A stretch of 51,333 nt of DNA. It comes from Nitrospirota bacterium. GTDB lineage: Bacteria; Nitrospirota; UBA9217. Made by a program: the position numbers and the translations under genes. Each line of letters starts with the position of its first letter. Positions within the stretch are counted from its first letter, which is position 1. The DNA lies in NCBI GenBank assembly GCA_029858565.1, contig JAOUEV010000020.1:1-51333 (forward strand), in the 5' to 3' direction. Below, piece by piece: positions 20,269 through 35,310 of the stretch. Below the pieces are notes generated by a model. That model was not told where the DNA came from, searched no databases, and saw nothing but the letters and a program-made list of their open reading frames with translations.

Positions 20269-20655
20269 TCACTGATCCAGCTCCTGCAGCGCTTCTTTTG
20301 CAAGAAGTCTGACCGCCGCGTGTGCATCCCCTTCAAGACGGCGCAGCGCCTCCCGTGCCGAAGGATCTCCAATGATGCCCAGCAGGTTCACCGCATCCCC
20401 GCGGATCGTGGGATTCTCGTGCTCCAGCAGGGAAACAAGCCCCGGAACGGCTGTACGCAGCTGCAGCCGGAACCCTCCAGCCAGTTCCTCGACCAGGGCC
20501 GTGGCCCCCAATCGCACCACGACCTGCTCGTCCGCGATTAAGGCGGGGATGAAGCGCATGAGACCAGGTTCCTGTTTGAACAGGGCAACAATGTTTTCCA
20601 GGAAGCCCTTGCCCATGTACTCGATGAGCATGGCCTGCATCTCGGCGTCATTCAT
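20269..20655 (-). CDS. HEAT-repeat protein
   Basis: VRLGATALVEEL, IRGDAVNLLGIIGD and VRLLAKEAL repeats; follows the radical SAM gene. Confidence 0.85.
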   Translation of the reverse strand: MNDAEMQAMLIEYMGKGFLENIVALFKQEPGLMRFIPALIADEQVVVRLGATALVEELAGGFRLQLRTAVPGLVSLLEHENPTIRGDAVNLLGIIGDPSAREALRRLEGDAHAAVRLLAKEALQELDQ

Positions 20656-20665
20656 ACAATCAGTT

Positions 20666-22126
20666 CTATGCTTCCGCAGACTCGATGATCTTCCGGACCT
20701 CGGGAGGCATCTCGCCCATGGTGGCGCCGATCTTCTTCTTGATGAAGGAATTGCTCATCATGAGCTTCATGGCAGTCACCATGTATTTCTTCTTGAACTC
20801 ATCGCGCTCCTGGAGCGTCATTTCGGCGTAGCGGTTCATGTAAAATGCCCGGTAGCAGTCAACGATCGCCTTGTCCACTTCCTCGAGCGTCATGTTCTTG
20901 GGCTTGAGGATGGGATCGATAAGGTTGTATTTCCGGTAGTCCTTGACAACGATATAGGGCTCCAGGTCCTTGTAGATGTCCGAGTAAGGCCAGGGCGCGA
21001 TCGCGAGAAAATGGGCCATATCAGGATTGAAGTCCATGACCAGTTCGAGCGTGCGCGCGATCGAGTCCTCGGTCTCGTCGGGGAATCCCAGGATCATGGA
21101 CGTTTCCGTGATGATACCGTGCTTGCGGCAGAGGGCCAGCGCTTTCTTGGATTCGCCGGTGCTCAGGTCCTTTTTGATGTAATCCAGGCTCTTCTGGTCA
21201 GTTGCCTCAGTGCCCACGTAGATATGGATGATGCCTGCCTGGCGGTACTTGTGCAGGATGTCCTCGTCGCGGATGATGTCGGCCGCGCGGGTCTCCATAA
21301 GGATATACTGCCCCGCCTGCTTCTCGATCAGCAGGTCCAGGAGCTTCTCCCACCGCGCCCGGTCCGGCGTCGGATAATCGTCGGTAAAGAGCACGACATC
21401 CACGCCATACTTGTCCCGGAGCTCAAGCATCTCGCGAACGATATCCTCGGGGCTCCGCGCCCGCCATTTCTGTTTCCAGTACTTCTGCTGGGAGCAGAAG
21501 GTGCATTCCTTGTCGCATCCCCGGGAGGTGTCCACGGCGCCCAGCCGGGACCCCGGAATGACGAAGTAGTGGTAATCGTTCCAGTCGAGCAGGTCCCACG
21601 CCATGGGCTGGTTGTCAAGGTTCTCCATGAGCGGCCGCTCCGGGGTCACCGCGAGCCCGCCCTTGTCCCGGTACACGATCCCCTTCACCCGGGAAAGGTC
21701 GCCCTGCTTCGTGACCGCATCGAGCAATTCAACGATCGTTTGCTCCCCTTCCCCGCGCACAATGAAGTCAAGTGCGTCGGTGTTGGAGAACATTTCCTCG
21801 TACATGAAGGATGCGTGTACGCCGCCGAGGATCGTTTTGATGGACGGATCGACCTTCTTCGCTGTTTCGACGACCAGCGTGGCGTCGGGCGCCGTGCAGG
21901 TGAACACCGAGGCCGCGATGAAGTCGGGCTTGTAGGAGCGGATCTTCTGCTCGATCTCGGCATACCCCACATCCTTGGTCATGGCATCGAAGATGGCCAC
22001 ATGGTATCCGGCCTTGCGGGCCGCGCCGGCAAGATAGACAAGGTAGAGCGGCACCCACTTGCCTGCGACCTCGACGACTCCCGCGTGATAGGGAGGCGTT
22101 ATGAACAATATCTTCTTTTTTGACAT
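20666..22126 (-). CDS. Cobalamin-binding radical SAM enzyme (class B methylase/BchE-like) 1
   Basis: N-terminal B12-binding domain (GGVHAS, GEGE) and TSRGCDKECTFC CxxxCxxC motif. Confidence 0.95.
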   Translation of the reverse strand: MSKKKILFITPPYHAGVVEVAGKWVPLYLVYLAGAARKAGYHVAIFDAMTKDVGYAEIEQKIRSYKPDFIAASVFTCTAPDATLVVETAKKVDPSIKTILGGVHASFMYEEMFSNTDALDFIVRGEGEQTIVELLDAVTKQGDLSRVKGIVYRDKGGLAVTPERPLMENLDNQPMAWDLLDWNDYHYFVIPGSRLGAVDTSRGCDKECTFCSQQKYWKQKWRARSPEDIVREMLELRDKYGVDVVLFTDDYPTPDRARWEKLLDLLIEKQAGQYILMETRAADIIRDEDILHKYRQAGIIHIYVGTEATDQKSLDYIKKDLSTGESKKALALCRKHGIITETSMILGFPDETEDSIARTLELVMDFNPDMAHFLAIAPWPYSDIYKDLEPYIVVKDYRKYNLIDPILKPKNMTLEEVDKAIVDCYRAFYMNRYAEMTLQERDEFKKKYMVTAMKLMMSNSFIKKKIGATMGEMPPEVRKIIESAEA

Positions 22127-22320
22127 ATGTCTATCGTCCTAAACCGGACTTGCCGGATTTGCTCCTTTGAACCGCCAAAGCGCAGCCGGAAGCAGGCGCT
22201 TCCAGGCGAGGTCGCCAGCGGCAAGATCCATCCTGATTTGTTTTGACGTCCTCACGTCCTTCACTTCTTCGCGTTAATATTTTCTGCCATTGTCAGCAAG
22301 AACTTGTTTGTTCGATCAGC

Positions 22321-22824
22321 TTACCTCAACGCCTGCTGCACATCCTTGCGCAGCTCATCTTCGGAATATACGCCCTTTACCTTCTTCAGGATCTTTCCAT
22401 CCTTCCCGATCAGGAAGGAAACCGGCGGATGGGCGATATCGCCATACTCCCGCTTCACCCGGTCGTTGGCGACCAGCACCGGGAACAATATCCCCAGCGC
22501 CTTCACGTCCGCAAGCGTCACCTCGTTGATCGCTACGGCGATCACGGTGAATCCCTTGTCCTCGTAGGAGAGGTAGACCTTCTGGAACCCCGGCATCTCA
22601 TCCTTGCATGGCGGGCACCAGCTGGCCCAGAAATTGAGCAGAACGACCTTTCCCCGGGAATCGGCGAGCCGCAGCATCCTGCCGGAGAGGTCCGCCAATG
22701 AGATGTTGGGAGCAGGGTCCCCGACAGCGGGCTTCTGTTCATTAAATGAGGCCCGGTCGCAGGCCGAGATGAGGAAAAGCACGAGCAACAGCGTTACGGC
22801 GCGTATGCAATATCTGCCTGTCAT
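22321..22824 (-). CDS. TlpA/ResA-family disulfide reductase lipoprotein
   Basis: Lipobox ISAC; VVLLNFWASWCPPCKDEMP motif. Confidence 0.93.
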   Translation of the reverse strand: MTGRYCIRAVTLLLVLFLISACDRASFNEQKPAVGDPAPNISLADLSGRMLRLADSRGKVVLLNFWASWCPPCKDEMPGFQKVYLSYEDKGFTVIAVAINEVTLADVKALGILFPVLVANDRVKREYGDIAHPPVSFLIGKDGKILKKVKGVYSEDELRKDVQQALR

Positions 22825-22884
22825 GATCACTCCCATGCGATGGTCTGTCATATTACCAGATAGCGCGGCATTCAAGAAGAGAAA

Positions 22885-23682
22885 TCATTCTTCTTCGCCC
22901 AGCACGGACTCGATCCGGGTGCGGATCCGCTCCATAACCTGCCCGTACTCTTGTGACAACCGGTTCCGCGGCCGGGCAAGCAGGTTGTCGAAGGACTCTG
23001 CCACTCGGCCGGGGCCCGCGGACAGGACAACGACCCGGTCGGCCAGATAGACCGCCTCATCAATGGAATGGGTGACGAACAGGACCGACAGCTTCCGTTC
23101 ACGGACCAGGTCAATGAGCAGGTGCTGCAGCTGGTGCCTCGTCCGTTCGTCCAGGGCGGTGAACGGTTCGTCCATCAGCCAGTACCAGGATTCCGAGGCG
23201 AGCAGTCTGCCCAGGGCGGCCCGCTGCTGCATTCCGCCGGAAAGTTCGTGAGGATAGAGATCTCCGGAGCCGGCAAGTCCCAGCCGGGCGCAGATCCCTG
23301 CGACCTGGCTCCGGGCGTCTTCCGGAGGGACGCCCTTGACCTCCAGCGGCAGGGCGATGTTCTCGCATACCCGCATCCAGGGAAAGAGCGTGTGACGCTG
23401 CGTCAGGTAACCGATCTTCCGCACCAGCGTGGCGGGGTCCTTGCCGTTGATCGTCGCGGTCCCTCTGTCGGCCCTCTCCAGGCCCGATACGATGCGCAGG
23501 ACCGTGGTCTTTCCCGATCCGGTGGGCCCCACGATGCACGTGATCATTCCTTCAGGCCCCTCAAAAGTAACGCCGTCCAGCGCCTTTACCGCGGTCCCGC
23601 CCCTGCTCAGGAAGGCTTTTTCAACGTCCTTGAGGGAATATGCGGTATCGGTCAGCTGGGGGATGAGGTCTTCTAGCGGCAT
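22885..23682 (-). CDS. ABC transporter ATP-binding protein (SsuB/NrtD-like)
   Basis: GPTGSGKT, LSGGMQQR, MDEPF and VTHSIDEA motifs. Confidence 0.95.
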   Translation of the reverse strand: MPLEDLIPQLTDTAYSLKDVEKAFLSRGGTAVKALDGVTFEGPEGMITCIVGPTGSGKTTVLRIVSGLERADRGTATINGKDPATLVRKIGYLTQRHTLFPWMRVCENIALPLEVKGVPPEDARSQVAGICARLGLAGSGDLYPHELSGGMQQRAALGRLLASESWYWLMDEPFTALDERTRHQLQHLLIDLVRERKLSVLFVTHSIDEAVYLADRVVVLSAGPGRVAESFDNLLARPRNRLSQEYGQVMERIRTRIESVLGEEE

Positions 23683-23716
23683 CGGGCCGGTCCCCTGTTG
23701 GAGGTTAGCTCGGTCA

Positions 23717-24589
23717 TCATCGTTCCAAAGCCTGCCAGTGCCCTGCATTCCGCTCGAACCGCGCGAACGCAACATCGATCAGCAACCCGGTGATGCCGAT
23801 AACGATCATGGCGGCGAAGGTGTACTGATAGTCCGAGGTCTTGCAGGCCGTGCAAAGCATATATCCGATCCCGCTCCGGGTGCCGGGAAATATCTCCGCG
23901 GCGATCAGGACCAGCCAGCACATGCCCATGGCGATCCGCATTCCGTGGGCGATCTCGGGCAGCGAATGCGGAAGCACCACCCTTCGCAGGATCTGAACAT
24001 CCGTGGCGCCCAAAAGCCGCATGGTCTCCAGATAGGAGGTCCGTACAGAACGGACGCCGTGGACCGTGCTCAGGAACACGGGGAAAAAAGCGCCCCACCA
24101 CAGGATGAAGACCATCGCGAGCTGTACCTGGTCGGCGACATCGTATTTCCATGCGTCCACCGGACCGAAGGCTACCGAGGCAAGGGAGGACAGTCCGAAG
24201 AGCACTGTCACCAGCGGCAGGAGCACCACCGGATTGATCGGACGCGCGATCTGGACAAGAGGATAGAACAGGCGGTCGACGACCCTGCTCTTCCCGGCAA
24301 GGAACCCGAGCGGCACCGCGGTCGCGACGCCGAGCCCGAAACCGAGCGCCAGCCTGATCAGGGTCATCATAAGCGAGAAGGCCAGGGACCGGGAGTAGAG
24401 ATCGGGAGGTATTTCCAGGGGATGGGCGAGGACCCCAATGACCGCGCTGAACGACGGGATGACCGCCGTACCGCTCCGTATTCCGAGCCACCAGGCAACG
24501 ACCAGCAGCGCGGGAAAGGCCGATCCCAGCAGGATCTTTCCAACGGGTCGGTCGGCCCAGGTCCCTCGCTGGTCATTCCGGTCGGTCAT
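23717..24589 (-). CDS. ABC transporter permease (SsuC/TauC-like)
   Basis: Multiple TM helices, EAA-like loop, LIAAE...SGIGY. Confidence 0.93.
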   Translation of the reverse strand: MTDRNDQRGTWADRPVGKILLGSAFPALLVVAWWLGIRSGTAVIPSFSAVIGVLAHPLEIPPDLYSRSLAFSLMMTLIRLALGFGLGVATAVPLGFLAGKSRVVDRLFYPLVQIARPINPVVLLPLVTVLFGLSSLASVAFGPVDAWKYDVADQVQLAMVFILWWGAFFPVFLSTVHGVRSVRTSYLETMRLLGATDVQILRRVVLPHSLPEIAHGMRIAMGMCWLVLIAAEIFPGTRSGIGYMLCTACKTSDYQYTFAAMIVIGITGLLIDVAFARFERNAGHWQALER

Positions 24590-24596
24590 AAAGCGG

Positions 24597-25748
24597 TCAT
24601 TTCCCCGCGCCGGGAAGCTCGGCAAGGGCTTCCTCGAGCGGTGTCAGATCAAAGGCGATTGAGCGGATATCCAGGGGACTCTTTCCCTGCAGTCTCTTCT
24701 GGAACGCTTTGGAGGACTGCATGAGCTCGAGCCAGATATCCACGGCGCTGATCCATGCCCGGTCCGGACGGGCTACATAGGTCACATGCGTGATGCTCTT
24801 CTCACCGATCTCCGGAGCTGTCCGGGTCCAGCGGGTCTCGGCGCTCAGCGCCCTGGCCTTGTCATGCAGAACGATGTCCGAACCAGCGGCAATGGCCTTG
24901 AGAAGCGCTTTGACCGCAGCGCGTTTTTCCTTGATCGCTTTTTCTCCCGCGGCGACAACACAGCAGGGATGGTCCTTCCACTTGCCCTCGGGCGGAAGCC
25001 CGGAAAGATCGACAACGCGGAAGCCCGCCTTCTTCGCCACGAGGATCGACGGCATGGGTTCATTCGCAACAACGCCGTCGATGATCCCGCTCTCCATGGA
25101 AGGCAGCGTGTTCTCGTCGCCCTGCAGGTTCATGAGCACCACCTGCACGGACTTGCCGTCAGCGCCGACGGGCTCCTGGCCCGCGCGGATCCCCTCTTCC
25201 GCCAGCGCCCGTGAAAAGATCAGGTAAGCGTTCGCCATGGGGTCCTTGAACCCGATCTTGAGCGGCCGGGAGGACGACTTGACCAGCTTCACGAAATCAG
25301 CCCACGATCCTGCGGTGAACTCGTTCCTGAGCAGCAGCGCGTCGCCGTCATTGTTCAGCGGCGCCAGCACCTTGAGGGGCGAGCCCTTGTCGATGAACTT
25401 GGCGACCGGCCCGAGCCCGCCCAGCCCTACTTCGATATGCCCCTGCTCCAGGGCCGCCGGCATCTTTGCTCCGCCGCCCACGCGCACAAGGTTCAAACGG
25501 GCTACAAGCCTTCCCTTGTCATAAAGATCATAGACCTCCTGGGGCTTCAGTTCCTTCAGGTAGACCCCGTAGGCCTTCTCCAGCGACTGGCCTGCGTCCG
25601 CGGCAGCGTACAATGCGATCTGATGATCATGGCCCACATGGCCCACTACCAGCGTGGGAACCTCAGACCCGCTCTCGGCGCCGAATACGATCCCGCTGCA
25701 AGCGACAAGCAGGGCGGCAAGAAGCACCGGAAAACGCAGCAAGGACAT
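24597..25748 (-). CDS. ABC transporter substrate-binding protein (SsuA/NMT1-like)
   Basis: AGGAGG RBS, signal peptide, GHVGHDHQ, EP and HPCC motifs. Confidence 0.9.
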   Translation of the reverse strand: MSLLRFPVLLAALLVACSGIVFGAESGSEVPTLVVGHVGHDHQIALYAAADAGQSLEKAYGVYLKELKPQEVYDLYDKGRLVARLNLVRVGGGAKMPAALEQGHIEVGLGGLGPVAKFIDKGSPLKVLAPLNNDGDALLLRNEFTAGSWADFVKLVKSSSRPLKIGFKDPMANAYLIFSRALAEEGIRAGQEPVGADGKSVQVVLMNLQGDENTLPSMESGIIDGVVANEPMPSILVAKKAGFRVVDLSGLPPEGKWKDHPCCVVAAGEKAIKEKRAAVKALLKAIAAGSDIVLHDKARALSAETRWTRTAPEIGEKSITHVTYVARPDRAWISAVDIWLELMQSSKAFQKRLQGKSPLDIRSIAFDLTPLEEALAELPGAGK

Positions 25749-25885
25749 GAGGGACCTCCTCGGGAGCAGGTTAACAGCGGTCGGTATTTTACGGCGCATT
25801 GCGCTGATTTGTCAACGTTTTCCTGCGCCGTCATCGGGAAAGGAGTTGACTTTTGACCGGAGGGAACGGTAATTTATATCTACCC

Positions 25886-26281
25886 ATGGGACCGGCGACG
25901 AACATTCTGCTCATGACCATCAACTACTCCCACGACATCGCCACAGCGCTGCTTGCCGTGAGCGGCATTGCCATGTTGATGCTCTGGAAATCCTATCCCG
26001 CGACCGCCGACGCGGCAACGGAACGCTATTTCATCAGCGCCTACCGCGGGATCACGCGGGTCGCCAAGGACTCGCTCTACTGGATACTGCTCGCCGGTGT
26101 GCCGCGCATCGTCTTCTATATGGACTACGAATGGTCCGACCTGGCTGGAGACCATCAGATCATCGCGGTCATCATCAAGCATATCCTCATGTTCCTGCTG
26201 GTCGGGACCGGGGTCTACTCCTGGATGAAACTGAGCAGGCGCGTAAAAGCATTGCACGAAAAGCAGCAGACTCCGGCATAG
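25886..26281 (+). CDS. Small membrane protein (NYxHDxATA family), paralogue of 33575-33958
   Basis: Three hydrophobic helices; NYSHDIATALL...PRI..Y..EW...KH. Confidence 0.8.
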   Translation: MGPATNILLMTINYSHDIATALLAVSGIAMLMLWKSYPATADAATERYFISAYRGITRVAKDSLYWILLAGVPRIVFYMDYEWSDLAGDHQIIAVIIKHILMFLLVGTGVYSWMKLSRRVKALHEKQQTPA

Positions 26282-26333
26282 CCGGAAATTATGGTTCTCG
26301 GTCCCGCCCCGCGGCGGGATGAAGGGGGTTTCC

Positions 26334-26519
26334 ATGGCACGAACGTTGATAATGGGCGCCGTGATCGGCCTGGTCGGAGGGATGGTGTTCAATGTCCTCT
26401 ACTTCGGCGCAGGCCAGATAAGCACGCCCATGGCCTATGTACATGCCGTCTCCGGCACCATCCTGGGCGCCATGATCGCCTGGATCGTCTACCTCCAGCG
26501 AAAGGCTTCGGCAAAGTAA
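26334..26519 (+). CDS. Small two-TM membrane protein
   Basis: G-rich RBS, two Gly-rich helices; TAATG-coupled to the next gene. Confidence 0.7.
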   Translation: MARTLIMGAVIGLVGGMVFNVLYFGAGQISTPMAYVHAVSGTILGAMIAWIVYLQRKASAK

Positions 26520-27055
26520 TGGTCCCTATGGGCTTCAAAGGGCTCATAGCCGCAGCAGTCCTCCTGCTGACGGCGTGCTCAAGCGGGCCGTCGGAATTTC
26601 CGGCAGCGGATTTTACCCTCAAGAGCCCGCTCACGGGCAAGCAGACCTCCCTGTCCGAGTTCAAAGGAAGGCCGATCATCATCTACTGGTTCACCAGCTG
26701 GTGAATACGCTGCGCCGAAGAGATCCCGCTGGTCCTGCGGGCAGAGCAGAAATACGAGAAAGAACGATTGGCCGTTCTGTGGGTCGGGCACCAGGATACG
26801 GTCAAGAAACTGACCGGTTTCGCTGAAAAGAACAGGATCCCCGACTATCTGTTCGATCCCGACGACGGCATGTCGCGGAAATACCGGATGACCTACGGCG
26901 GCGGGGTGGTCTTCATCAACCGCGCAGGGACCGTGAAGCTCCGGGTGCCCAAGGGATTCTCGCCAGCGGGCCTGGAGGAAGCGATCCAGAAGATCCTGGT
27001 CAACGAGCCTGTTCAGCCCCAGGGGCAGGGGGCCGGTTCGCAGAAGCAGAAGTGA
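26519..27055 (+). CDS. TlpA/peroxiredoxin-like lipoprotein selenoprotein (UxxC), 178 aa with Sec at UGA 26702-26704
   Basis: Lipobox LTAC; IIYWFTSW-UGA-IRCAEEIP continues in frame into ORF 26768-27055 and aligns with WASWCPPC of the TlpA paralogue; hairpin downstream of the UGA. Confidence 0.88.
26705..26749 (+). promoter_or_regulatory. Putative bacterial SECIS element
   Basis: CCCGC(26725-29)-TGGTCCT loop-GCGGG(26737-41), with the loop about 25 nt after the UGA and GG near its start; possible lower pair CTGC/GCAG. Confidence 0.7.
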
Positions 27056-27115: not shown

Positions 27116-27125
27116 GAAATTCATT

Positions 27126-28505
27126 ATGTCCGATTCTTTTTATATAGCTCTTCGGGAATCGCTTCAGGCATCGTTCCTTGTTGCGCTGGTCCTTTTCGCG
27201 CCTCCTGCACGCGATGACGCCCGTTCCCGGCGCAATGCGCTGCTCGGTCTGGTCATCGGGTTCCTTGCCGGCACGGCCGCCGGCGCCATCCCGGCCATTA
27301 CCAGGACCCTGGGCACCCACGAGACCTGGACCTTCTGGCGCCATGGCGCTGAAACAGTCCTGTTCTACGGCAGCGTCGCGCTGCTGGCAGGCACGGGCAG
27401 CAGATCACGCGCGCTGCCTCCGGCATTGTTCCTGCCCTTAGGATTCTCGCTCGTCTTCTTTGAGGCGCGGACGCTCGGCTTCATTGCCCATGATCTCGGC
27501 GCCATGACCGGCCGCATCGGGACCTCCTTTGCCTGGGGGGCAGCGGGACTTGCAGCAGGCGCCCTGCCGCTCCTGCTGATCAGGAGCCGGGTCCGCAGGC
27601 TTCCCTTTGAACGGACCTTCTCCCCCGCGAGCCTGCTCATGTCCCTGGGCGCGCTCCAGCTCTGGATGGGGGGGCTCGGCGAACTCGGCGGTGAAAGCGT
27701 CATGGTCCCGCTCCAGCGAGGGCTGCAGCTCTTCTTCAACGAGTTCATGAAAAGCGTGCAGTCGGCGCTCCTCATAACCGAGCATCCCTTTCTCGAGGTC
27801 ACCCTGTCGGGTCTGGCCGAGTACCTGGGAAGCGACCGCTCCGCTCTGACCGTGACCGTGCTCTTTCTGATGATCCCTCCGGTCTACATCCTCGTCACGA
27901 TCTTTGCGCGTCCCGATCCGCAGGTGACGGGCATCGCCGGAAGCGCCCATCGACGCCAGGCGGTAGCAGGTTTCCGGAGGGATTTGACCCTGGAAAGCGC
28001 GCCGGTCCTGACCGCGTTCATCGTCCTGGTGGTCATGCTCCACGCCGTGAACGTATCCATGAACCCGCTGTATGATCCCGAGCCCGTCCCGGTGCGCGAG
28101 GCCGACGAGGGCGGCGTCATCAAGATCCCGCTGTCGGGCAAGAGCGGCGACCTGACAGACAAGAAACTCCGCAAGTTCGTGTACTACGAGGGAACCAAGC
28201 AGGTGCTGTTCATCGCCATCATGAAGGCTGACAACACGGTCGGCGTGGCGCTTGACCAGTGCGAGATCTGCCGCCCCGCGGACTGGAACAAGGACGCCAA
28301 GGGATACGCACAGAAGGGCGAGAACCTGATCTGCAAATACTGCGTGACCCCCATCGCCACGAACACGGTGAACACGCCGGGAGGCTGCAATCCCATCCCG
28401 GTTCCCTTCAAGATCACCGACGGGTCGATTGTGCTCAACAAGAACCTTCTGGTCTCGACCTTTGACAAGGCCGAGGCCCTGGAAAAAGGGGGAACCCACC
28501 TGTGA
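27126..28505 (+). CDS. FTR1-like iron permease fused to a DUF2318-like Cys-rich (Fe-S) domain
   Basis: N-terminal LRESLQA (RExxE-like), many TM helices, C-terminal CEIC...CKYC...GGCNPIP. Confidence 0.82.
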   Translation: MSDSFYIALRESLQASFLVALVLFAPPARDDARSRRNALLGLVIGFLAGTAAGAIPAITRTLGTHETWTFWRHGAETVLFYGSVALLAGTGSRSRALPPALFLPLGFSLVFFEARTLGFIAHDLGAMTGRIGTSFAWGAAGLAAGALPLLLIRSRVRRLPFERTFSPASLLMSLGALQLWMGGLGELGGESVMVPLQRGLQLFFNEFMKSVQSALLITEHPFLEVTLSGLAEYLGSDRSALTVTVLFLMIPPVYILVTIFARPDPQVTGIAGSAHRRQAVAGFRRDLTLESAPVLTAFIVLVVMLHAVNVSMNPLYDPEPVPVREADEGGVIKIPLSGKSGDLTDKKLRKFVYYEGTKQVLFIAIMKADNTVGVALDQCEICRPADWNKDAKGYAQKGENLICKYCVTPIATNTVNTPGGCNPIPVPFKITDGSIVLNKNLLVSTFDKAEALEKGGTHL

Positions 28506-29758
28506 GCATCCGCCCCCTCCTCCGCCTGATCGGGTCCTGGTGGCTGACCGCCGCGCTGTTGTCGCTCCTGACATCGGCATATCTCGTCTTCTCCCTTGAC
28601 GGCAATCCCTACCCCGCGTGGCTGGAGTTCCTCTTTCACTCCGGCCCGGGTATCGCGCTCTACTCGGCGCTGACGATCAATATCGCGGCTGCGACCATCC
28701 GCATCGTCGTGGACCGCATGGCAAGGCCCGCAGTTACGCCGGAGACCATCCGGGCCATGGATGAATACACCGAGTTCCCGATCAACGACGACCGGTCCCT
28801 GCACATGGCGGCAGGACTGCTCAAGGAACGCCTGTCTGCACAGGACATCCGGGGCCAGGGCATGCGCCATGTGACCGGCCGCCTGTCCTTTCTTCCCGGA
28901 GCCGTTTTCCGCTTCGGCCTGGTCATGACGCTCCTCGCGCTCCAGGTGAGCGTCCACACCCGCCGGAGCAGTGACGCTGTTTTCCATGAAAACGAGGAGC
29001 GGAGCATCCTGGGGAGCCCGATCACGGTGACAAAGATCTCGGCAAACCTTCCTGGCGATTTTCTGCAAGTAGGTGATGACACGACCTTCCGGCTTGACCG
29101 GGTGTCCGTTACCGCCGCGTCTGCAGGAGCAAGTCACCGCATCACGCCGGGATTCCCGACGCGCATCAGCGGCGCCTATTATCGGGTCCGCCATGTAGGT
29201 TTCGCCCAGCCGGCGGTCATCGCGGTCGCGGGAAGGACCCAGGAGCTGACGGTCGATCTCGACGTCCTGCCTCCGGGAAGAACAAGCATCCTTTCCCTTG
29301 CATCAGGCGACTCGTTCTTCACCTTCTCCCTCGAACCGGACAGGACCATCACCAAGGGCCTGGTCACGGGCAGGCAGTACGATCTGACAGCGCCCCGCTA
29401 CCGGGTCACGGCGCAGCGCGGGAACGTGCGGGGAAAACAGCCTTCGGCCGTTCTCCGGCCCGGCAGTCGTGCCGCGGTCGGTCCGGCATCGATCGCGCTG
29501 GGCAGACCGGGGCTGTCGGTGCGCATCCAGGCCACGTCCGACCCGGCGCTTCCCTTCCTGTATGCAGGCATGCTTATTTTGCTGGCAGGGCTGGGTGCGA
29601 TGCTGAGCAGGTTCTTCTGGTATGAACGGGAATTCGCGCTGTCCATGGACGGGACCACGCTGATCATGGGATGCAGGGACGAGTTCTTCAAGAAGTGGGG
29701 GATCCTGCGATTCCAGCGCTGGACGGAAGGTCTGCAGGTGGCGGAAAAAGCTGGTTAA
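28502..29758 (+). CDS. ResB/CcsB-like membrane protein with large periplasmic domain
   Basis: Three N-terminal TM helices, beta-rich middle region, DPALPFLYAG C-terminal TM motif. Confidence 0.7.
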   Translation: MSIRPLLRLIGSWWLTAALLSLLTSAYLVFSLDGNPYPAWLEFLFHSGPGIALYSALTINIAAATIRIVVDRMARPAVTPETIRAMDEYTEFPINDDRSLHMAAGLLKERLSAQDIRGQGMRHVTGRLSFLPGAVFRFGLVMTLLALQVSVHTRRSSDAVFHENEERSILGSPITVTKISANLPGDFLQVGDDTTFRLDRVSVTAASAGASHRITPGFPTRISGAYYRVRHVGFAQPAVIAVAGRTQELTVDLDVLPPGRTSILSLASGDSFFTFSLEPDRTITKGLVTGRQYDLTAPRYRVTAQRGNVRGKQPSAVLRPGSRAAVGPASIALGRPGLSVRIQATSDPALPFLYAGMLILLAGLGAMLSRFFWYEREFALSMDGTTLIMGCRDEFFKKWGILRFQRWTEGLQVAEKAG

Positions 29759-29765
29759 AACAACT

Positions 29766-30809
29766 ATGACACCTTCTTCACCAAGACCGAAAGATGGCAA
29801 CACGCGCCTGCACGTCCTTGCCGGTGTCGCCTGCCTCTGCGTCCTTGCCGGCGCGGGCATCGGCATCCTTGCCGGACGCCAGGACATCACGCCGAGCGAT
29901 TGCCTCGAAACACGGTTGAGCGGCTACCGGTTCATCAACCCCCTGCTTGACTGCGAGATCGCCGGAAATCCCGTCGCGTTCAGGGAATTGAGGTTTTTTC
30001 AGCACAAGATCGAACAGCTCATCAGGGATCGTACCGGAAAATACCAGCTCACCTTGGTGTCCGTTTACTTCCGGGACCTTATGAACGGCCCCTGGTTCGG
30101 CATTAATGAAAAAACGCTTTTCACTCCGGCAAGCCTGCTCAAGGTCCCGATCATGATCGCCTGCCTCAAGCAGGCGGAAAAGGATCCGTCGTTCCTCGGC
30201 AAGCTCGTCCCCAACACTCTGCGGGAAGACCTGAATCAGAAGCAGTTCGTCAAGCCCGACGAGGTGCTCAGGCCGAACCGCCGCTACACAGTGGAACAGT
30301 TGATCCGGAGGATGATCGAATATTCGGACAACAACGCGGCACACCTGCTCGGCAAAACCGTGGACCCGAAAATGCTCGTCAGGACCTTTCAGGACCTCGG
30401 CGTGAAGCGCCCCCTCTTGAACATCCAGTACGATTTCATGTCTGTCAAGATGTACGCGTCGTTCTTTCGGATCCTCTTTAACGCATCCTATCTTGATCGG
30501 AACTATTCACAGCTGGCCCTGGAGTATCTCAGCTATTCCACGTTCAAGGATGGTATTGCCGCCGGCATCCCTCCTTACATCCTCGCGGCCCACAAATTCG
30601 GAGAATTCCATGTTCCGGGACCGGAGAACATCAGACAGCGCCATGACTGCGGCATCATATACTATCCCGGCAGACCCTACCTGCTCTGCGTCATGAGTCG
30701 CGGTCAGGACTACGATTCTCTCGACAACATCATTCGCGAGGTGAGCAGGACGGTTTATGAGGAGATCGACGCGGACGTGAAGTCCCGGTCGCGGAGGTCC
30801 GCCCCATGA
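29766..30809 (+). CDS. Class A beta-lactamase-like serine hydrolase 1
   Basis: ASLLK (SxxK), SDN, HKFG (KTG-like), HDCGIIY; N-terminal TM helix. Confidence 0.88.
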   Translation: MTPSSPRPKDGNTRLHVLAGVACLCVLAGAGIGILAGRQDITPSDCLETRLSGYRFINPLLDCEIAGNPVAFRELRFFQHKIEQLIRDRTGKYQLTLVSVYFRDLMNGPWFGINEKTLFTPASLLKVPIMIACLKQAEKDPSFLGKLVPNTLREDLNQKQFVKPDEVLRPNRRYTVEQLIRRMIEYSDNNAAHLLGKTVDPKMLVRTFQDLGVKRPLLNIQYDFMSVKMYASFFRILFNASYLDRNYSQLALEYLSYSTFKDGIAAGIPPYILAAHKFGEFHVPGPENIRQRHDCGIIYYPGRPYLLCVMSRGQDYDSLDNIIREVSRTVYEEIDADVKSRSRRSAP

Positions 30810-31840
30810 GCCTCCGCGCTTCATATACGGTTCCGGCGACGTTGGTCCTGGCCGGCGTCATGCTCATCAGCCTCGGGTTCCTCATCGGCTTCGCCGCAAC
30901 GGGTCGTGGTGATTCCGCTATTCATGCCGAGCGAACCGCGCAGCTGCGTCTCACTGATTTCGACCTCACGAACCCGCTGCTGGAGTGTGAAGGCGCGGAT
31001 GCGACCATCGGGGACCGCACGTTCAGGCCGTTCAAAAATGAGTTGAACTCTCTCGTGAGCAGTATCCTGAACCGGGGACAGGTCCGGCAGCTCGCGGTGT
31101 ATTTTCGCGATCTGAACAACGGCCCCTGGTATGGGATCAACGAAAATCTTGAATTCTACCCTGCAAGCCTGATGAAGATCCCGGTCGCCATGGTCTTTAC
31201 GAAGGAGGCCGAGGCTGATCCACGTGTCCTGCAGCGGGTAATCAAGAACACACTCTCTAAGGATTATAACACCTCACGCGTATATCCGTCTTCCCGTGCG
31301 GTGCTTCCCGGCAGGAGCTACCGGGTCCGGGATCTGATCGAGATCATGCTGTCCGAATCAGACAACAATGCCGTTGTCTTGCTGGGCCGCCACATGAATC
31401 GCGCCATCGCGGAACAGCTTTTTGCCGATCTGGGCCTGCCTGCGCCGACAAACGAACCACGGGACTACCTGTCCATCCGTTCCTTTTCCATGCTCTTTCG
31501 CACCCTGTTCAATGCGTCCTATGTATCGAAGGACGCCTCGGAGGAACTCCTCTCGCTCCTGAGCAGATCGTCCTTTCGTCAGGGGATCGCGGCGGGTGTT
31601 CCCGAGGGGGTCATGATCGCGAACAAGTATGGCGAGCAGCAATTGGGACCGGCAGGGAGCGTCAAGGAATTGCATGACTGCGGCATCATCTATTATCCCG
31701 ACAGCCCCTATCTCCTCTGCGTCATGAGCAAGGGGGACAGCTACGAAGCCGATGAAGCGGCCATCAGGGAGATATCACGATTTGTCTTTTCGGTCGTCGA
31801 TTCCGAGCAGCGCGAACATTCGGATGCGAAACACCGATAG
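30806..31840 (+). CDS. Class A beta-lactamase-like serine hydrolase 2
   Basis: ASLMK, SDN, NKYG, HDCGIIY; clear paralogue of the preceding gene with ATGA overlap. Confidence 0.88.
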   Translation: MSLRASYTVPATLVLAGVMLISLGFLIGFAATGRGDSAIHAERTAQLRLTDFDLTNPLLECEGADATIGDRTFRPFKNELNSLVSSILNRGQVRQLAVYFRDLNNGPWYGINENLEFYPASLMKIPVAMVFTKEAEADPRVLQRVIKNTLSKDYNTSRVYPSSRAVLPGRSYRVRDLIEIMLSESDNNAVVLLGRHMNRAIAEQLFADLGLPAPTNEPRDYLSIRSFSMLFRTLFNASYVSKDASEELLSLLSRSSFRQGIAAGVPEGVMIANKYGEQQLGPAGSVKELHDCGIIYYPDSPYLLCVMSKGDSYEADEAAIREISRFVFSVVDSEQREHSDAKHR

Positions 31841-31847
31841 GCAGTGG

Positions 31848-32567
31848 TCAACCGTTCATCCGCGCCAGGACGAACCCCGCGCCGCCAAGGCAGAGCAGTA
31901 CCCCGCCGAGAAGCGCCCAGGGCGCGCCGGGATCGCGGCTTACGCGGATAAGCGCCGAGGATCCCTTGTTGTCAACGTTCACGGATTTTGAGAAGATCCC
32001 GTAGCTTCCCATATGCAGGGGATGCGCCGGCCTGAGGGACCGGACCTCTCCGGTCTTCCCGCCGTTGCTCCAGCGCAGCACCGCCTCCCAATCCACGGCA
32101 TACCCGTTCGCATCGAGCTCCTCGCGCACGCTTACCAGCGTGATCGCGGCGCCTTCTGCCACCAGTTTCGTTTCCCCCTGTCTGATGTCCAGGTCCAGCT
32201 TCATGCCCATTGACGCGGTCAGCAGATGTCCCAGCATGACAAAGAGCACGCCGACATGCATGATCTGCGGGGACAAGCGCGCTATCGTGTTGATCCTGCC
32301 GACCCTGAACAGAAGCGCTTCACCGGTGCAGACCAGCGTGTTCAAGGCAAACAGTCCGAGCCCGGCGATGAGACCGTAGATCCACCACGTCGTGCCGATA
32401 TTTCCCGCTTCGGAAAGCCAGCGGAACAGCGGCGTGTCGTCGATGCCCGAGAAGAACGCGAGATTGCCCGGCAGCGCGATCGACCCCCAGAGCATGATCA
32501 CCGCGAAGAAGACGAAGAACCAGTACGCGGTCCTGATGGAAAGGAAGAAATTGAGGATTGCTTTCAT
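31848..32567 (-). CDS. Short ResB/CcsB-like cytochrome c biogenesis protein
   Basis: LNTLVCT, QIMHVG (TM His) and RDPGAPWALLGG motifs; directly after ccsA. Confidence 0.8.
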   Translation of the reverse strand: MKAILNFFLSIRTAYWFFVFFAVIMLWGSIALPGNLAFFSGIDDTPLFRWLSEAGNIGTTWWIYGLIAGLGLFALNTLVCTGEALLFRVGRINTIARLSPQIMHVGVLFVMLGHLLTASMGMKLDLDIRQGETKLVAEGAAITLVSVREELDANGYAVDWEAVLRWSNGGKTGEVRSLRPAHPLHMGSYGIFSKSVNVDNKGSSALIRVSRDPGAPWALLGGVLLCLGGAGFVLARMNG

Positions 32568-32649
32568 AGACAGGTCCTTTTATAGGATAGGGAGCCCAAT
32601 CCGCAACAAGATCGAAAAGCAAAGATGTCTCGCGCAAAGCCGCACTGTT

Positions 32650-33414
32650 TCAGAATTGCACCGGCGGCGCGGGAATGATCGTTCCCACCCCAAAGTAAGC
32701 AAAAAGGGCGATGAGATACCCGAGCAGGCCGATGATCGCCGCGGGCCTGCCCGCCAGGCCCTTAAGGTAGCGCTGGTGCAGGTAGAGACCGAAGAAGAAC
32801 CAGCAGAGCGTGGTAAAAAGCTCCCTTGAGGTCCAGAGCCAGTACATGCCGTAAGCGATGAAGAACCAGACACTGCCTGCCACGAGCGCGATCGTGTAGA
32901 CCGCCCACCCGTATGCGGCGAGCTGGTACTGCAGACGCTCCCGGTCCGCGTTCCCCTCGGCAAGATAGGCGATACCCGCGCATGCCGAAACCCCGAAGAA
33001 TCCGTAGGACAGGTACAGGAGGAACATATGCAGCGTGAACCAGGGGGTGCGCATGAACGGAGAGATCGTGTTGATCGTCGGGAAGAGCAGCGACGCTATC
33101 GCCAGCAGGGAAACGGCCGTGATCGACGTAACCTGATACCAGGGAGAGGTGTCGGCGGCGGACAAACGCCAGTACACGACCGCCGTCGTAAAGGCCATGA
33201 ACGAGACGTTATCGTGCTTTTCCGTGAGCGGGATCCCGCCGAGGACATAACCGCGGTATATGATGCTGAGGCCGTGCAGCACCAGCCCCAGAAGAAAGAG
33301 GGTGCGGCTGTGCTTTCCTTCCATCATGCCCATGCCGTAGAACAGCGCGGGAACGAGGATCGAGAAGATCGTGATGAGGGTCCGCGCTTCTTCCGCGCTC
33401 AGATCAGAAAACAT
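32650..33414 (-). CDS. ccsA: Cytochrome c biogenesis protein CcsA/ResC (system II)
   Basis: WFTLH, GSVW...YGMYWLWTSRE (WWD-like domain), YLH heme-ligand His. Confidence 0.9.
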   Translation of the reverse strand: MFSDLSAEEARTLITIFSILVPALFYGMGMMEGKHSRTLFLLGLVLHGLSIIYRGYVLGGIPLTEKHDNVSFMAFTTAVVYWRLSAADTSPWYQVTSITAVSLLAIASLLFPTINTISPFMRTPWFTLHMFLLYLSYGFFGVSACAGIAYLAEGNADRERLQYQLAAYGWAVYTIALVAGSVWFFIAYGMYWLWTSRELFTTLCWFFFGLYLHQRYLKGLAGRPAAIIGLLGYLIALFAYFGVGTIIPAPPVQF

Positions 33415-33445
33415 GGAATGCTCCGCTGAAATGAAAATATATTCT

Positions 33446-33543
33446 ACCGCGAAGGCGCGCGGGGCGCGATGGACGTCAAAATCTTTTTTATCTTTAATTC
33501 AGGATCTCAAGAGATTTCTTCGCGACCGTTGCGTCTTCGCGGT
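33446..33543. repeat. Imperfect 26-bp inverted repeat (REP/MITE-like)
   Basis: accgcgaaggcgcgcggggcgcgatg (33446-33471) versus the reverse complement of 33518-33543 (accgcgaagacgcaacggtcgcgaag), around an AT-rich core. Confidence 0.6.
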
Positions 33544-33574
33544 TCATGGGATCTTCTGCATGGAATGGTCCGGC

Positions 33575-33958
33575 TCAGGAGGAAAGCTTTTCCCGTGTCG
33601 CGGACGCGACACGCAGCCAGAAAATAATGCCCACGACGATCATGACCGCGGCGAGACCGTACTTCATGAAGAGGCCTGCCTGATACCCTTTCTGCGCAGC
33701 GTTCACCCATTCGAACGTGTCGAACGTCGCGATGCGGATCAGGCCGCTAACCATGATCCAGACAAGGGAGATCCAGACGAGCCGCACCATGCCGCGGTAG
33801 AGGCTCCGTGCATACGCGCGCAGCACCGGACTCTCGGCGCCGTTGTTCAGGTATTTCCGGAACAGCCAGAGCACAAGCGCGCAGGCCGGCAGCATGGCCG
33901 TTGCCACGTCGTGGAAATAATTGTTCATCAGTAAAAACGTCGCGAATCCCGGGTTCAT
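33575..33958 (-). CDS. Small membrane protein (NYxHDxATA family), paralogue of 25886-26281
   Basis: NNYFHDVATAML...IRI..F..FEW...KY; TGATG-coupled to radical SAM 2. Confidence 0.82.
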   Translation of the reverse strand: MNPGFATFLLMNNYFHDVATAMLPACALVLWLFRKYLNNGAESPVLRAYARSLYRGMVRLVWISLVWIMVSGLIRIATFDTFEWVNAAQKGYQAGLFMKYGLAAVMIVVGIIFWLRVASATREKLSS

Positions 33959-35310
33959 CACTTCCGCACTCCGCATTCCGCATTCCGCATTCGAATCATC
34001 TCTTCCCGCTCACGCGCGAACTGCTTGAACGCCCTGCCCTGGGGGAACTGGACCATCCAGGAGGTGATATGGCTCATGGGGAATCCCTTCCATGACACCT
34101 GGGACATGCGCTCCAGGATCTGGGGGACCGAGAACAGGTCAGCCCGGAGCCGCACGATCGCATCTTCGCGCTCCAGCACGGACATGGTGGGATGCTCGTA
34201 GGTCGCGTGGTTGCCGTCGTAGCTGTCCCAGTCAAGACCGGGGATCAGATAGGGCTTGTAGATATCATAGAGATCGGTGCCGGGAAAGGGCGTGGTCATG
34301 ACCGGATGGGCCGACACCTTCAGGTCATCACAGAGCTTGCGGATGCCGTCAAAGTCCTCACGCACATCCTGCCTGCCGCCGACCATGATGAAGAGCATGA
34401 CCTCGATGCCGTGGTCGCGCACCTTTTTGATGGCGTCCCTGCGCTCGCTGCCCTGCTTGGTCACGGCCTTGTATTCCTGCAGGCTCTGCTGGTTGTTCGA
34501 TTCCCAGCCCACGAGCACCGCCGTGAGGCCCGCCTTGCGCGCGTTGTTCAGCAGTTCGTGGGAGCGCGGATGCTGGATCGACGTGAGGTCGCCGGAGCCG
34601 AACCACCATTTGCGCCGCACGGTCTTTGCCATCTCCGCGTAGAGCTCGATGGAGCGGTTGACGTTCACTCCCCAGATATTGTCGTCGATGCCCCAGAAGA
34701 GATGCCGTTTGCTCGCCGCGACCTCCTCCACCACGTCCTTGATGGGACGCATGCGCACTTTTCCGCCGAAGAACTTATGGACCGAGCAGAAGGCGCAGGA
34801 GAAGGGGCAGCCGCGGGAGGTCTGGAAATAACCGTACACGTACTTGGTCTTCCAGAGGTTCGTGACCGGACGGGGCAGGTTCACCAGGTCCGAGAATGTG
34901 CCCTGGTAGGTCTGCTTGAGCGTCCCCTGCTCCGCGTCCTTCAGCAGCCCTGCCCAGATGTTCTCCGACTCTCCGAGCACCAGCGCGTCGCAGTGCTGCT
35001 TCGCCTCCTCGGGGAGCGCTGTCACATGAATGCCCCCGAGAATGACCTTCTTGCCCATGGCGCGGAGCTTGTCCGCGGTCCGGTAGACCCAGGGAGCCTG
35101 GGGCGTCAGCACGGTGAATCCGATCAGGTCCGCGTCCGCCGCCTGCGGATCAAAGGATTCCTTGTTCGCGTCAACGACCTGGACCTCGATGTCCGGCCTG
35201 AGCTGGCGCGTAAGCCCGGTCATGTATTCGAGCACCGGAGGGGCGATAGGCAGTCCCTTGGACTTCTGGCCCTTCTCGCCGAAGGGAGGGGAAACAAGCA
35301 GGAGTTTCAT
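33958..35310 (-). CDS. Cobalamin-binding radical SAM enzyme 2
   Basis: B12-binding domain (GGIHVT, GESE), TSRGCPFSCAFC, DDN and TPFPGT motifs. Confidence 0.95.
   Translation of the reverse strand: MKLLLVSPPFGEKGQKSKGLPIAPPVLEYMTGLTRQLRPDIEVQVVDANKESFDPQAADADLIGFTVLTPQAPWVYRTADKLRAMGKKVILGGIHVTALPEEAKQHCDALVLGESENIWAGLLKDAEQGTLKQTYQGTFSDLVNLPRPVTNLWKTKYVYGYFQTSRGCPFSCAFCSVHKFFGGKVRMRPIKDVVEEVAASKRHLFWGIDDNIWGVNVNRSIELYAEMAKTVRRKWWFGSGDLTSIQHPRSHELLNNARKAGLTAVLVGWESNNQQSLQEYKAVTKQGSERRDAIKKVRDHGIEVMLFIMVGGRQDVREDFDGIRKLCDDLKVSAHPVMTTPFPGTDLYDIYKPYLIPGLDWDSYDGNHATYEHPTMSVLEREDAIVRLRADLFSVPQILERMSQVSWKGFPMSHITSWMVQFPQGRAFKQFAREREEMIRMRNAECGVRK
33961..33992. repeat. 7-nt tandem repeat (A[C/T]TCCGC) x4 encoding the last residues of radical SAM 2
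   Basis: cttccgc-actccgc-attccgc-attccgc-attc. Confidence 0.85.

Follow-up and report, generated by a model that had tools for sequence, protein, structure and literature searches.

A conserved gene set linking two predicted B12-dependent radical SAM enzymes and a new membrane protein family to System II cytochrome c maturation genes

The current view is that cytochrome c maturation requires no more than the export of heme, the reduction of thiols and a ligation step. System II, which consists of CcsA/ResC and CcsB/ResB together with ResA/CcdA, includes paralogues that are dedicated to particular substrates, such as NrfI and CcsA1 of Wolinella. The locus described here lies within a 51,333-nucleotide stretch of DNA (the window; contig JAOUEV010000020.1 of assembly GCA_029858565.1) from a sediment bacterium of the phylum Nitrospirota. 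It combines one System II paralogue with two B12-binding radical S-adenosylmethionine (radical SAM) enzymes, small membrane proteins of a new family, a selenocysteine thioredoxin and a FetA-like protein. These genes form a conserved set rather than a chance neighbourhood; they are functionally linked and have spread horizontally. The set is classed here as System II cytochrome c maturation with accessory enzymes that are not described in the papers searched. It is quite possible, though short of probable, that the set modifies heme or a related hydrophobic carboxylate, which a dedicated System II paralogue then exports.

The set comprises three modules. The cytoplasmic module contains the radical SAM enzymes rSAM1 and rSAM2 and a SRPBCC ligand-binding protein, the membrane module is the small membrane protein sTM, and the periplasm-facing module pairs CcsA with a miniature ResB (mini-ResB) and adds a redox module made up of a FetA-like FTR1/DUF2318 protein, a selenocysteine (Sec)-containing TlpA-like thioredoxin (Sec-TlpA) and a histidine-less ResB-derived protein (ResB418). 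An earlier reading made without database searches (the sequence-only reading) had listed two radical SAM enzymes, two TlpA-like proteins, two ResB-like proteins, two small membrane proteins and one CcsA, all of which were found where it had placed them. The positions of these genes in the window are as follows.

20666..22126, minus strand: rSAM1, BchE-like B12-binding radical SAM enzyme (PF02310 89 bits, PF04055 93 bits)
22321..22875, minus strand: TlpA/ResA-like lipoprotein thioredoxin with WCPPC (AhpC-TSA 79 bits, Redoxin 73 bits)
25886..26281, plus strand: sTM1, small membrane protein of the N-Y-x-H-D family (by family alignment; CopD 20.5 bits, below cut-off)
26519..27055, plus strand: Sec-TlpA, selenocysteine TlpA-like lipoprotein thioredoxin with W-U-I-R-C, UGA at 26702-26704
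27126..28505, plus strand: FetA-like membrane protein with a C-terminal DUF2318/FtrD-like domain (PF10080 81 bits)
28502..29758, plus strand: ResB418, ResB-derived protein of 418 amino acids (hhalign against full ResB; Pfam ResB 19.2 bits, below the cut-off of 24.6)
31848..32567, minus strand: mini-ResB, 239 amino acids (Pfam ResB 27.2 bits, cut-off 24.6)
32650..33414, minus strand: variant CcsA (PF01578 90.6 bits)
33575..33958, minus strand: sTM2, small membrane protein of the N-Y-x-H-D family
33958..35310, minus strand: rSAM2, B12-binding radical SAM enzyme (PF02310 and PF04055)
35424..35861, minus strand: SRPBCC (Polyketide_cyc2) ligand-binding protein (47.9 bits; the open reading frame (ORF) extends to 35906)

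Three transcription units are found between a terminator-like hairpin (20174-20203) and a promoter-like site (35919-35892). The left unit (minus strand) contains the genes for an NMT1_2/SsuA-like binding protein, a permease, an ATPase, the WCPPC TlpA-like protein, rSAM1 and a HEAT-repeat protein; the middle unit (plus strand) contains sTM1, Sec-TlpA, FetA-like, ResB418 and two Beta-lactamase2 genes; and the right unit (minus strand) contains SRPBCC, rSAM2, sTM2, CcsA and mini-ResB. The sequence-only reading had also seen three operons. This stands, except that it had omitted the two Beta-lactamase2 genes from the plus-strand operon and that the third operon most likely starts upstream at the SRPBCC gene, which is likely to be its first gene. 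The translational coupling proposed for rSAM2 and a membrane protein was confirmed as well, the rSAM2 stop codon overlapping the sTM2 start in the sequence TGATG (33960-33956). The idea that the paired parts make up one symmetrical pathway is not supported.

The conservation of the set was followed from rSAM2. A scan of one genome per species gave 73 loci, 65 of which contain rSAM2 orthologues (59-86% identity); loci L074-L081, in which rSAM2 identity is 22-33% and which are not orthologous, are excluded from the counts. The records are labelled Nitrospirota/Thermodesulfovibrionia, Anaeromyxobacter, Geobacter, Coriobacteriia and other Actinomycetota, and the loci have a mean length of 14.8 kb. 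The counts were made by tblastn with the window proteins because greedy ORF maps mis-call G+C-rich loci (for example L041, L044, L047, L070 and L071). The families were found in the 65 loci as follows.

sTM: 49 of 65 loci
any System II gene (CcsA/ResB): 29 of 65
SRPBCC: 22 of 65
rSAM1 orthologue (at least 45% identity): 19 of 65
FetA-like: 19 of 65
mini-ResB: 17 of 65
FtsX permease: 15 of 65
ResB418: 14 of 65
Sec-TlpA: 13 of 65
beta-lactamase-fold: 4 of 65
HEAT: 1 of 65
NMT1 binding protein: 0 of 65

The sequence-only reading had put forward the co-localisation of the radical SAM genes with ccsA/resB as a check on itself, and rSAM2 homologues do co-localise with these genes under three phylum labels: in 20 of the 43 loci labelled Nitrospirota and other, in 6 of 11 labelled Myxococcota/Geobacter and in 3 of 11 labelled Actinomycetota/Coriobacteriia. 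System II genes are thus about 20-fold enriched beside rSAM2 over a rough chance of about 2% per 15-kb locus, a figure that is simple arithmetic from the five CcsA-type genes in the 3.9-Mb genome to which the window belongs. Gene order is shuffled between loci while the set is retained. Loci L024 and L066, for instance, read sTM-CcsA-miniResB-SecTlpA-rSAM1-FetA-SRPBCC, and L056 and L065 read ResB-CcsA-rSAM2-sTM. The neighbour in the latter two loci and in L038 is a full-length ResB with a canonical CcsA.

Within the phylum, a sample of 151 genomes contains rSAM2 orthologues (at least 73% identity) in 5 of the 150 genomes besides that of the window, all five in other families; the 27 genomes of its own family have rSAM2 paralogues of 37-43% identity or nothing, and no orthologue (0/27). 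This patchy occurrence fits an accessory, transferable function. All five rSAM2-orthologue carriers have sTM (E 1e-49 to 1e-56). Homologues of rSAM1 (43-54% identity) are present in four of five further carriers, including the carriers of the rSAM2 loci L061 (labelled as a metagenome chromosome) and L072 (labelled Actinomycetota) and an Anaeromyxobacter record, in which rSAM2-sTM is at L049 and the rSAM1 homologue is elsewhere in the genome. In genome G003 some 4.4 kb separate the rSAM1 homologue and a CcsA gene. The two radical SAM enzymes are inherited together: among 17 chosen genomes, 12 carry an rSAM1-like as well as an rSAM2-like gene and 5 carry neither, a profile that is not a statistical test because the genomes are related.

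A divergent triad occurs in L094-L097 (G010, G104, G116, own family). It consists of an rSAM2-like protein (38-43% identity), an rSAM1-like protein (about 48%) and a 117-amino-acid membrane protein with F-L-H-D-F-A-A-G, accompanied by one or two LuxE-type carboxylate- or acyl-activating genes, PMT_2/TPR membrane proteins and a beta-lactamase-fold gene. An ORF of 1152 amino acids with 22 CxxCH motifs is found in L094.

Full-text searches turned up no paper that connects B12-radical SAM enzymes to cytochrome c maturation or to ResB/CcsA. One paper that was considered as a description of such a link (PMC7641849) deals with a different subject. In addition, five components have no NCBIfam match at E<=0.01, namely both sTM proteins, the FetA-like protein and both ResB-like proteins.

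In both rSAM1 and rSAM2 a B12-binding domain is followed by a radical SAM core, with PF02310 and PF04055 above their cut-offs, and the CxxxCxxC motifs in the two translations read CDKECTFC and CPFSCAFC. Judged from sequence, both are class B (cobalamin-dependent) radical SAM enzymes. Membership of the radical SAM enzymes in characterised clades had been named as a finding that would speak against the sequence-only reading; no matching NCBIfam family reached its curated cut-off with either protein. The BchE model TIGR02026 is matched by rSAM1 with 407.4 bits over positions 1-460 of 497 (cut-off 481.35), and the second-best family is HpnR with 171.8 bits. Matches of rSAM2 to several NCBIfam families are weak and roughly equal. 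A search of solved structures with both proteins returned distant B12-radical SAM relatives only.

The annotation of the Joint Genome Institute (JGI) names rSAM1 orthologues as BchE, the bacteriochlorophyll cyclase, with which rSAM1 shares its domain order. A genuine BchE function was rejected. The score is below the cut-off, and in the window's genome, whose completeness is given as 100%, the best BchM match has 61.7 bits (cut-off 158.9) and BchH has no match at E<=1e-5. Since a genome without BchM and BchH does not make the substrate of BchE, rSAM1 cannot be a chlorophyll cyclase. It differs from BchE also in its neighbours, which are cytochrome-synthase and redox genes instead of bch genes, and in its frequent fusion to an SRPBCC domain, seen in five loci (L017, L020, L023, L025 and L037); the two are adjacent in L021. 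A literature search on BchE homologues outside phototrophs found nothing usable. The sequence of rSAM2 is strongly conserved, with a mean column identity of 73% (n=32 sequences), and gene maps of the rSAM2 loci show no conserved candidate precursor gene beside the radical SAM genes. Prediction of a complex between rSAM2 and sTM2 gave a score of 0.00 and a mark of 0.32, which counts neither for nor against binding.

Elsewhere in the same genome, a 45-kb region (C41:129700-174200) contains at least seven B12-radical SAM-like genes. They include an rSAM2 paralogue that is 62.6% identical and has no sTM. The region also holds a ResB/CcsA pair (144982-147299) with three ORFs of about 660-685 amino acids beside it.

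The likeness of rSAM1 to BchE could indicate that the set is an oxygen-independent substitute for one of the standard reactions leading to heme b, such as the oxidation of porphyrinogen or the decarboxylation of coproheme. The coupling of rSAM2 to sTM resembles that of coproporphyrinogen oxidase to its partner HemJ, a small membrane protein of heme b synthesis, and the carriers are anaerobes with a HemE-ferrochelatase-AhbD route. However, the window's genome has AhbD above cut-off together with HemE and ferrochelatase, and among ten other carriers a strong AhbD-like gene is present in nine and a HemY-type oxidase above cut-off in seven. Because the carriers thus appear, by their gene content, to be complete for heme b, the set is not a replacement of a standard heme b step. 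Its patchy occurrence (5 of 150 other genomes of the phylum and none of 27 in the own family) is unlike that of an essential step, and sTM has no match to HemJ in a Pfam scan. This explanation is very improbable and has mostly been rejected.

The SRPBCC domain raises another alternative, in which the two radical SAM enzymes act on a membrane lipid or respiratory quinone, for instance by methylating menaquinone or a hopanoid-like lipid, with the SRPBCC protein as carrier and sTM as membrane partner; the synthase genes would then be neighbours through anaerobic respiration. The fold fused to rSAM1 is that of SRPBCC proteins, among which Coq10 and START domains are binders of quinones and lipids. 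The matched B12-radical SAM relatives HpnR, HpnJ and the ladderane family act on hopanoids or lipids, LuxE-type acyl-activating enzymes occur in the divergent triad, and membrane proteins of the PMT_2/TPR kind are repeatedly found in the vicinity. For rSAM1, however, the BchE family scores far above all others, and a lipid or quinone product leaves no role for a dedicated CcsA/mini-ResB or for the thioredoxin module, while the System II linkage spans three phylum labels. Modification of a lipid or quinone is considered distinctly unlikely.

The membrane module is a new four-helix membrane protein family. The two copies in the window carry the motifs INYSHDIATA and NNYFHDVATA and are 28-29% identical to each other. 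Across 35 sequences, N13, Y14, H16, D17, A19, W67, R75, E83, K99 and W114 are invariant. An AlphaFold model of sTM2 has four helices and a pLDDT of 95.8, and a Foldseek search against the PDB found nothing at E<=0.001, only generic helical bundles. All Pfam matches of sTM (CtaG, CopD and DUF7314) are sub-threshold. The matches to CopD (PF05425) and CtaG (PF09678) occur in 7 and 8 of the 35 sequences, and the best CopD score of 20.5 bits compares with a cut-off of 32.1. Proteins of the CopD and caa3-CtaG types are likewise small, helical and membrane-bound, but sTM differs by a separate set of invariant positions (N-Y-x-H-D, W, R, E, K and W). In the ESM Atlas sTM falls among unnamed clusters, with CopD-like clusters listed at 0.81-0.84. 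The family is small, with 295 representatives among 1.84 billion proteins in an exhaustive profile search. A word-index search gave no longer proteins containing sTM, but in the profile search a few long proteins (P0010, P0024 and P0080) start with an sTM domain that is followed by PKD/NHL repeats, a SurA-like chaperone/peptidyl-prolyl isomerase or a PsbP/DcrB-like domain. These could be genuine fusions or artefacts of gene calling that ran on past a stop, and they are too scarce to serve as evidence.

The CcsA of the cluster scores 90.6 bits against PF01578 (cut-off 29.9) and 102.2 bits against the equivalog TIGR03144 (cut-off 187.6). Like other System II synthases, it has a Trp-rich motif and two flanking periplasmic histidines (H129 and H213), and it stands beside a histidine-bearing ResB homologue and near TlpA/ResA-like thioredoxins. 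Several paralogous sets within one cytochrome-rich genome are a further shared trait. The cluster differs in that its Trp-rich motif reads W-L-W-T-S-R-E, whereas canonical copies in the alignment read W-x-W-D-P-x-E; in the subfamily, W-L-W-T/S-x-K/R-E, the Asp of WWD is replaced by Thr or Ser. It also differs by the 239-amino-acid miniature ResB, by a second, histidine-less ResB-like protein and by a selenoprotein thioredoxin. No CcdA/DsbD was seen in the cluster, where a FetA-like protein is present instead. In the papers searched, no System II locus is described as linked to two B12-radical SAM enzymes and sTM.

Both ResB-like proteins are, on profile comparison with hhalign, true ResB homologues. 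Against full-length ResB, mini-ResB gives a probability of 97.6% (E 4.7e-12) and the ResB418 family 99.8% (E 2e-30). The large periplasmic domain of ResB is mostly missing from mini-ResB, which retains the conserved histidines H104 and H114, the former invariant. In the gene maps ResB418 always adjoins the FetA-like gene. The altered WWD motif belongs to a System II variant that occurs throughout the phylum, and the cluster holds one paralogue of that variant. Its interpretation as an adaptation to a modified heme was rejected, the variant pair being common in genomes without the radical SAM enzymes.

The redox module has its closest described relative in Campylobacter jejuni. One report (PMC10783030) describes FetABCDEF as required under iron limitation, with unknown biochemistry, and FetA as a membrane protein of many helices whose periplasmic DUF2318 domain contains two CxxC motifs and one further Cys. 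In the FetA-like protein of the cluster C379, C382, C403, C406 and C421 are invariant, and they form the motifs CEIC and CKYC and a fifth Cys in the DUF2318 domain. The sequence-only reading had called this protein an FTR1-DUF2318 fusion. The DUF2318 domain is borne out, but FTR1 was undetected in the N-terminal part of the window copy, which has no Pfam match even at E<=1. FTR1 was matched in 5 of 23 family members (best E 8.4e-6), and the N-terminal part is probably a remote FTR1-like multi-helix region.

The second part of the redox module is the TlpA-like pair. Both proteins match AhpC-TSA/Redoxin above the cut-offs, carry the motifs WCPPC and WUIRC and have signal-like N-termini ending in Cys, from which a lipoprotein anchor is read. 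The selenocysteine in Sec-TlpA is assigned because a TGA is found at the identical codon in 13 of 13 orthologues and because tRNA-Sec is present in the genome. A hairpin 8 nucleotides past the UGA is indistinguishable from shuffled sequence (z -0.88), and the selenocysteine insertion sequence was dropped as support. The tRNA-Sec gene (36057-36155) lies on another contig (C73:34521-41112), between an 11-heme cytochrome ORF and a canonical ResB/CcsA pair.

The FetA-type DUF2318 protein and the one or two membrane-associated thioredoxins are common to the cluster and to the FetMP-FetABCDEF system of C. jejuni (PMC10783030). Two FtsX-type permeases and an ABC (ATP-binding cassette) ATPase of that system also occur in relatives of the cluster and on contig C41. 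The cluster differs in several respects. An FTR1 permease was not found in its genome, no YHS domain was matched by Pfam in the window proteins or the FetA-like family, the FetA-like protein has a constant ResB-derived partner, the window has an NMT1-type importer in place of the FtsX ABC transporter, and one thioredoxin uses selenocysteine. On C41 (110711-126852) a second string consists of an FtsX permease, an ABC ATPase, a FetA-like gene (28% identical) and a 371-amino-acid ORF, followed directly by cytochrome genes with 4, 23 and 12 CxxCH motifs.

The locus might be a mosaic of separate systems, namely a Fet-like iron-acquisition module (FetA-like protein, thioredoxins and ABC transporter), a spare cytochrome c synthase for an organism rich in cytochromes and a radical SAM pair with an unrelated product. 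FetABCDEF, which C. jejuni needs when iron is limiting, is built from similar kinds of parts (PMC10783030), relatives and C41 show the FetA-like gene next to a pair of FtsX permeases and an ATPase, mini-ResB occurs without the radical SAM enzymes, and rSAM2-sTM occurs without any other family in many loci. The genome also contains five CcsA-type genes and 40 multiheme ORFs. On the other hand, the families recur together in varied orders, often in a single operon (L024 and L066), the roughly 20-fold System II enrichment holds under three phylum labels, and the genome has no FTR1 permease for Fet-type uptake. A mosaic is regarded as somewhat unlikely.

Under the favoured reading, in which heme or a related hydrophobic carboxylate is first modified and then exported, the pathway would proceed as follows. 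In the cytoplasm, rSAM1 and rSAM2 would successively modify a hydrophobic, carboxyl-bearing small molecule bound by the SRPBCC protein. The likeliest substrate would be heme or a late heme precursor, attacked on a side chain as BchE attacks a propionate. At the membrane, sTM would receive or orient the product. CcsA/mini-ResB would then export it and ligate it to a c-type apocytochrome encoded elsewhere, while the FetA-like protein and the Sec-thioredoxin would hold the thiols of the apoprotein or of the machine in the right redox state. The domain content, the conserved linkage, the joint inheritance of the two enzymes and the distinctness of rSAM1 from BchE are shown, whereas what is modified and into what, what sTM does and which protein receives the product are inferred. 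A small hydrophobic substrate is suggested by the linkage, by the SRPBCC fusion, by the high sequence conservation of rSAM2 and by gene maps in which no precursor gene is conserved. Heme or a close relative is the best candidate because rSAM1 is BchE-like and because the pair is repeatedly adjacent, across phyla, to heme-exporting synthase genes. The Trp-rich motif retained in the variant CcsA, the histidines retained in CcsA/mini-ResB and the LuxE-type carboxylate-activating enzymes in the divergent triad also point to a tetrapyrrole.

A number of observations weigh against this reading. Likeness to BchE does not prove the substrate of rSAM1, heme or another tetrapyrrole is itself a presumption, and SRPBCC and LuxE suit lipids or quinones as well. 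The sTM family has a single invariant histidine (n=35), and its sub-threshold matches to CtaG and CopD are copper-related. ResB418 is without the conserved membrane histidine of ResB, the column reading F-R-F. The altered WWD motif is unusable as a sign of modified heme because the CcsA/mini-ResB pair also occurs outside the set: of the 17 genomes, 15 have mini-ResB, three of them without the radical SAM enzymes, and the window's own genome has a second variant CcsA (W-L-W-T-P-K-E) with a mini-ResB (C49:19965-21430) standing alone near housekeeping-like genes. The FetA-like module resembles the iron-uptake-linked system of Campylobacter. In many loci (L030, L033, L036, L039 and most of those labelled Actinomycetota) rSAM2-sTM lies amid housekeeping genes, and tblastn finds the HEAT gene in one of the 65 loci (L010) besides the window and the NMT1 binding protein in none. 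Finally, CxxCH occurs in no ORF of at least 100 amino acids in the whole window, as the sequence-only reading had noted for apocytochromes, and multiheme cytochrome genes are found in 13 of the 65 loci compared with a 13% baseline in the own genome. This enrichment is too weak, and multiheme cytochromes were set aside as conserved neighbours.

Cytochromes bear also on the alternative that the target of the radical SAM enzymes is a protein, either an apocytochrome or some other one destined for export, which would be altered in the cytoplasm ahead of Sec transport and then matured by the System II paralogue. Methylation of side chains in peptides or proteins is carried out by other B12-radical SAM enzymes. 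Giant multiheme cytochromes (1579 amino acids with 25 CxxCH and 1551 amino acids with 28) flank the triad directly in L025, a 22-heme gene is present in the divergent locus L094, and one sTM is fused to a SurA-like chaperone/peptidyl-prolyl isomerase. Weaker matches of the radical SAM enzymes lead to methylases of ribosomally synthesized and post-translationally modified peptides and of protein carbon atoms (ApyD, rSAM_ocin_1 and the glutamine methyltransferase of methyl-coenzyme M reductase). Against this, no conserved candidate substrate gene adjoins the enzymes, cytochrome genes are weakly enriched, the SRPBCC fusion indicates a small hydrophobic ligand, and rSAM2 keeps about 60% identity or more across phylum labels while the neighbouring proteins differ. 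Modification of an apoprotein is considered improbable.

The sequence-only reading had likewise proposed a dedicated heme or tetrapyrrole pathway. The conserved linkage and the BchE-like rSAM1 agree with it, but the variant CcsA/mini-ResB is not specific to such a pathway and the substrate is presumed. A narrower form of the favoured reading, in which the radical SAM pair turns heme or a late precursor into an unknown derivative (its propionate, for example, oxidised, desaturated or cyclised in the manner of BchE) that a dedicated System II synthase exports and attaches to particular c-type cytochromes, is considered unlikely.

The remaining features of the cluster are as follows.

20174..20203: terminator-like hairpin of 13 pairs with a T-run, closing the left end of the cluster
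20269..20655, minus strand: HEAT-repeat protein, 128 amino acids (Pfam HEAT_2 42.4 bits)
22885..23775, minus strand: ABC transporter ATPase (ABC_tran 92 bits)
23717..24625, minus strand: ABC importer permease, BPD_transp_1 (94 bits)
24597..25748, minus strand: NMT1_2/SsuA-like substrate-binding lipoprotein (NMT1_2 88.6 bits; SsuA_fam 35.7 bits, below cut-off)
25786..25815, minus strand: promoter-like site of the left operon, TTGACA-18-TAAAAT, 11/12
29766..30809, plus strand: membrane-anchored Beta-lactamase2-family protein, paralogue 1 (124 bits)
30806..31840, plus strand: membrane-anchored Beta-lactamase2-family protein, paralogue 2 (123 bits)
35892..35919, minus strand: promoter-like site 5' of SRPBCC, TTGCGA-16-TATAAT with TG

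The ORF of the NMT1_2/SsuA-like gene extends to 25799, and a start at 25748 agrees with the promoter-like site. An ABC importer is present, as the sequence-only reading had stated, but its binding protein is of the NMT1/SsuA type and the proposed import of metal is not shown. In genome G027 a 57%-identical NMT1-type binding protein follows a string of sTM-SecTlpA-FetA-ResB418. Absent from the 65 loci yet linked in this genome, the importer is an occasional member of the set. The HEAT protein had also been counted among the parts, which its presence in a single locus does not support. A role for it as a tetrapyrrole lyase-like partner was dropped, since the matches to NblB, CpcF and DVU0298 are weak and sub-threshold and the gene is not conserved. 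The two Beta-lactamase2 paralogues are 40% identical to each other.

Outside the cluster, the window contains ordinary envelope genes encoding ApbE (10751-11767), the apolipoprotein N-acyltransferase Lnt (36844-38385) and a bifunctional penicillin-binding protein with a PBP-C domain (40868-43213). A 354-amino-acid ORF (35949-37013) may not be a gene because it has no Pfam match and overlaps Lnt. A complete-looking type I-C CRISPR-Cas effector operon with Cas3, Cas5d, Csd1/Cas8c, Cas7 and Cas4 is located at 2669-9893 on the minus strand, in a stretch of lower G+C content (47-50%). At 44000-51333 the G+C content falls to 40-45%, compared with 57% genome-wide.

That System II genes are linked to a selenoprotein thioredoxin, a new membrane family and two B12-radical SAM enzymes suggests that cytochrome c maturation may include further chemistry. 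The set also shows the FetA/DUF2318 family, which is poorly understood, in a second context. A modified heme as the product would be a new entry in the short list of natural heme types and might account for unusual redox behaviour among the cytochromes of metal-reducing anaerobes. If a lipid or quinone is modified instead, the set still defines a function for an abundant protein group that JGI mislabels as bacteriochlorophyll cyclase and that includes more than 120 clusters at 66% identity or more among the matches listed. The question may be testable at the bench, since a named strain is among the carriers (the record of L049 is titled Anaeromyxobacter oryzisoli SG63). If the narrower form with an unknown heme derivative is true, some anaerobic metal- and sulfur-cycling bacteria of several phylum labels would carry a new covalently bound heme cofactor together with its own maturation machine.

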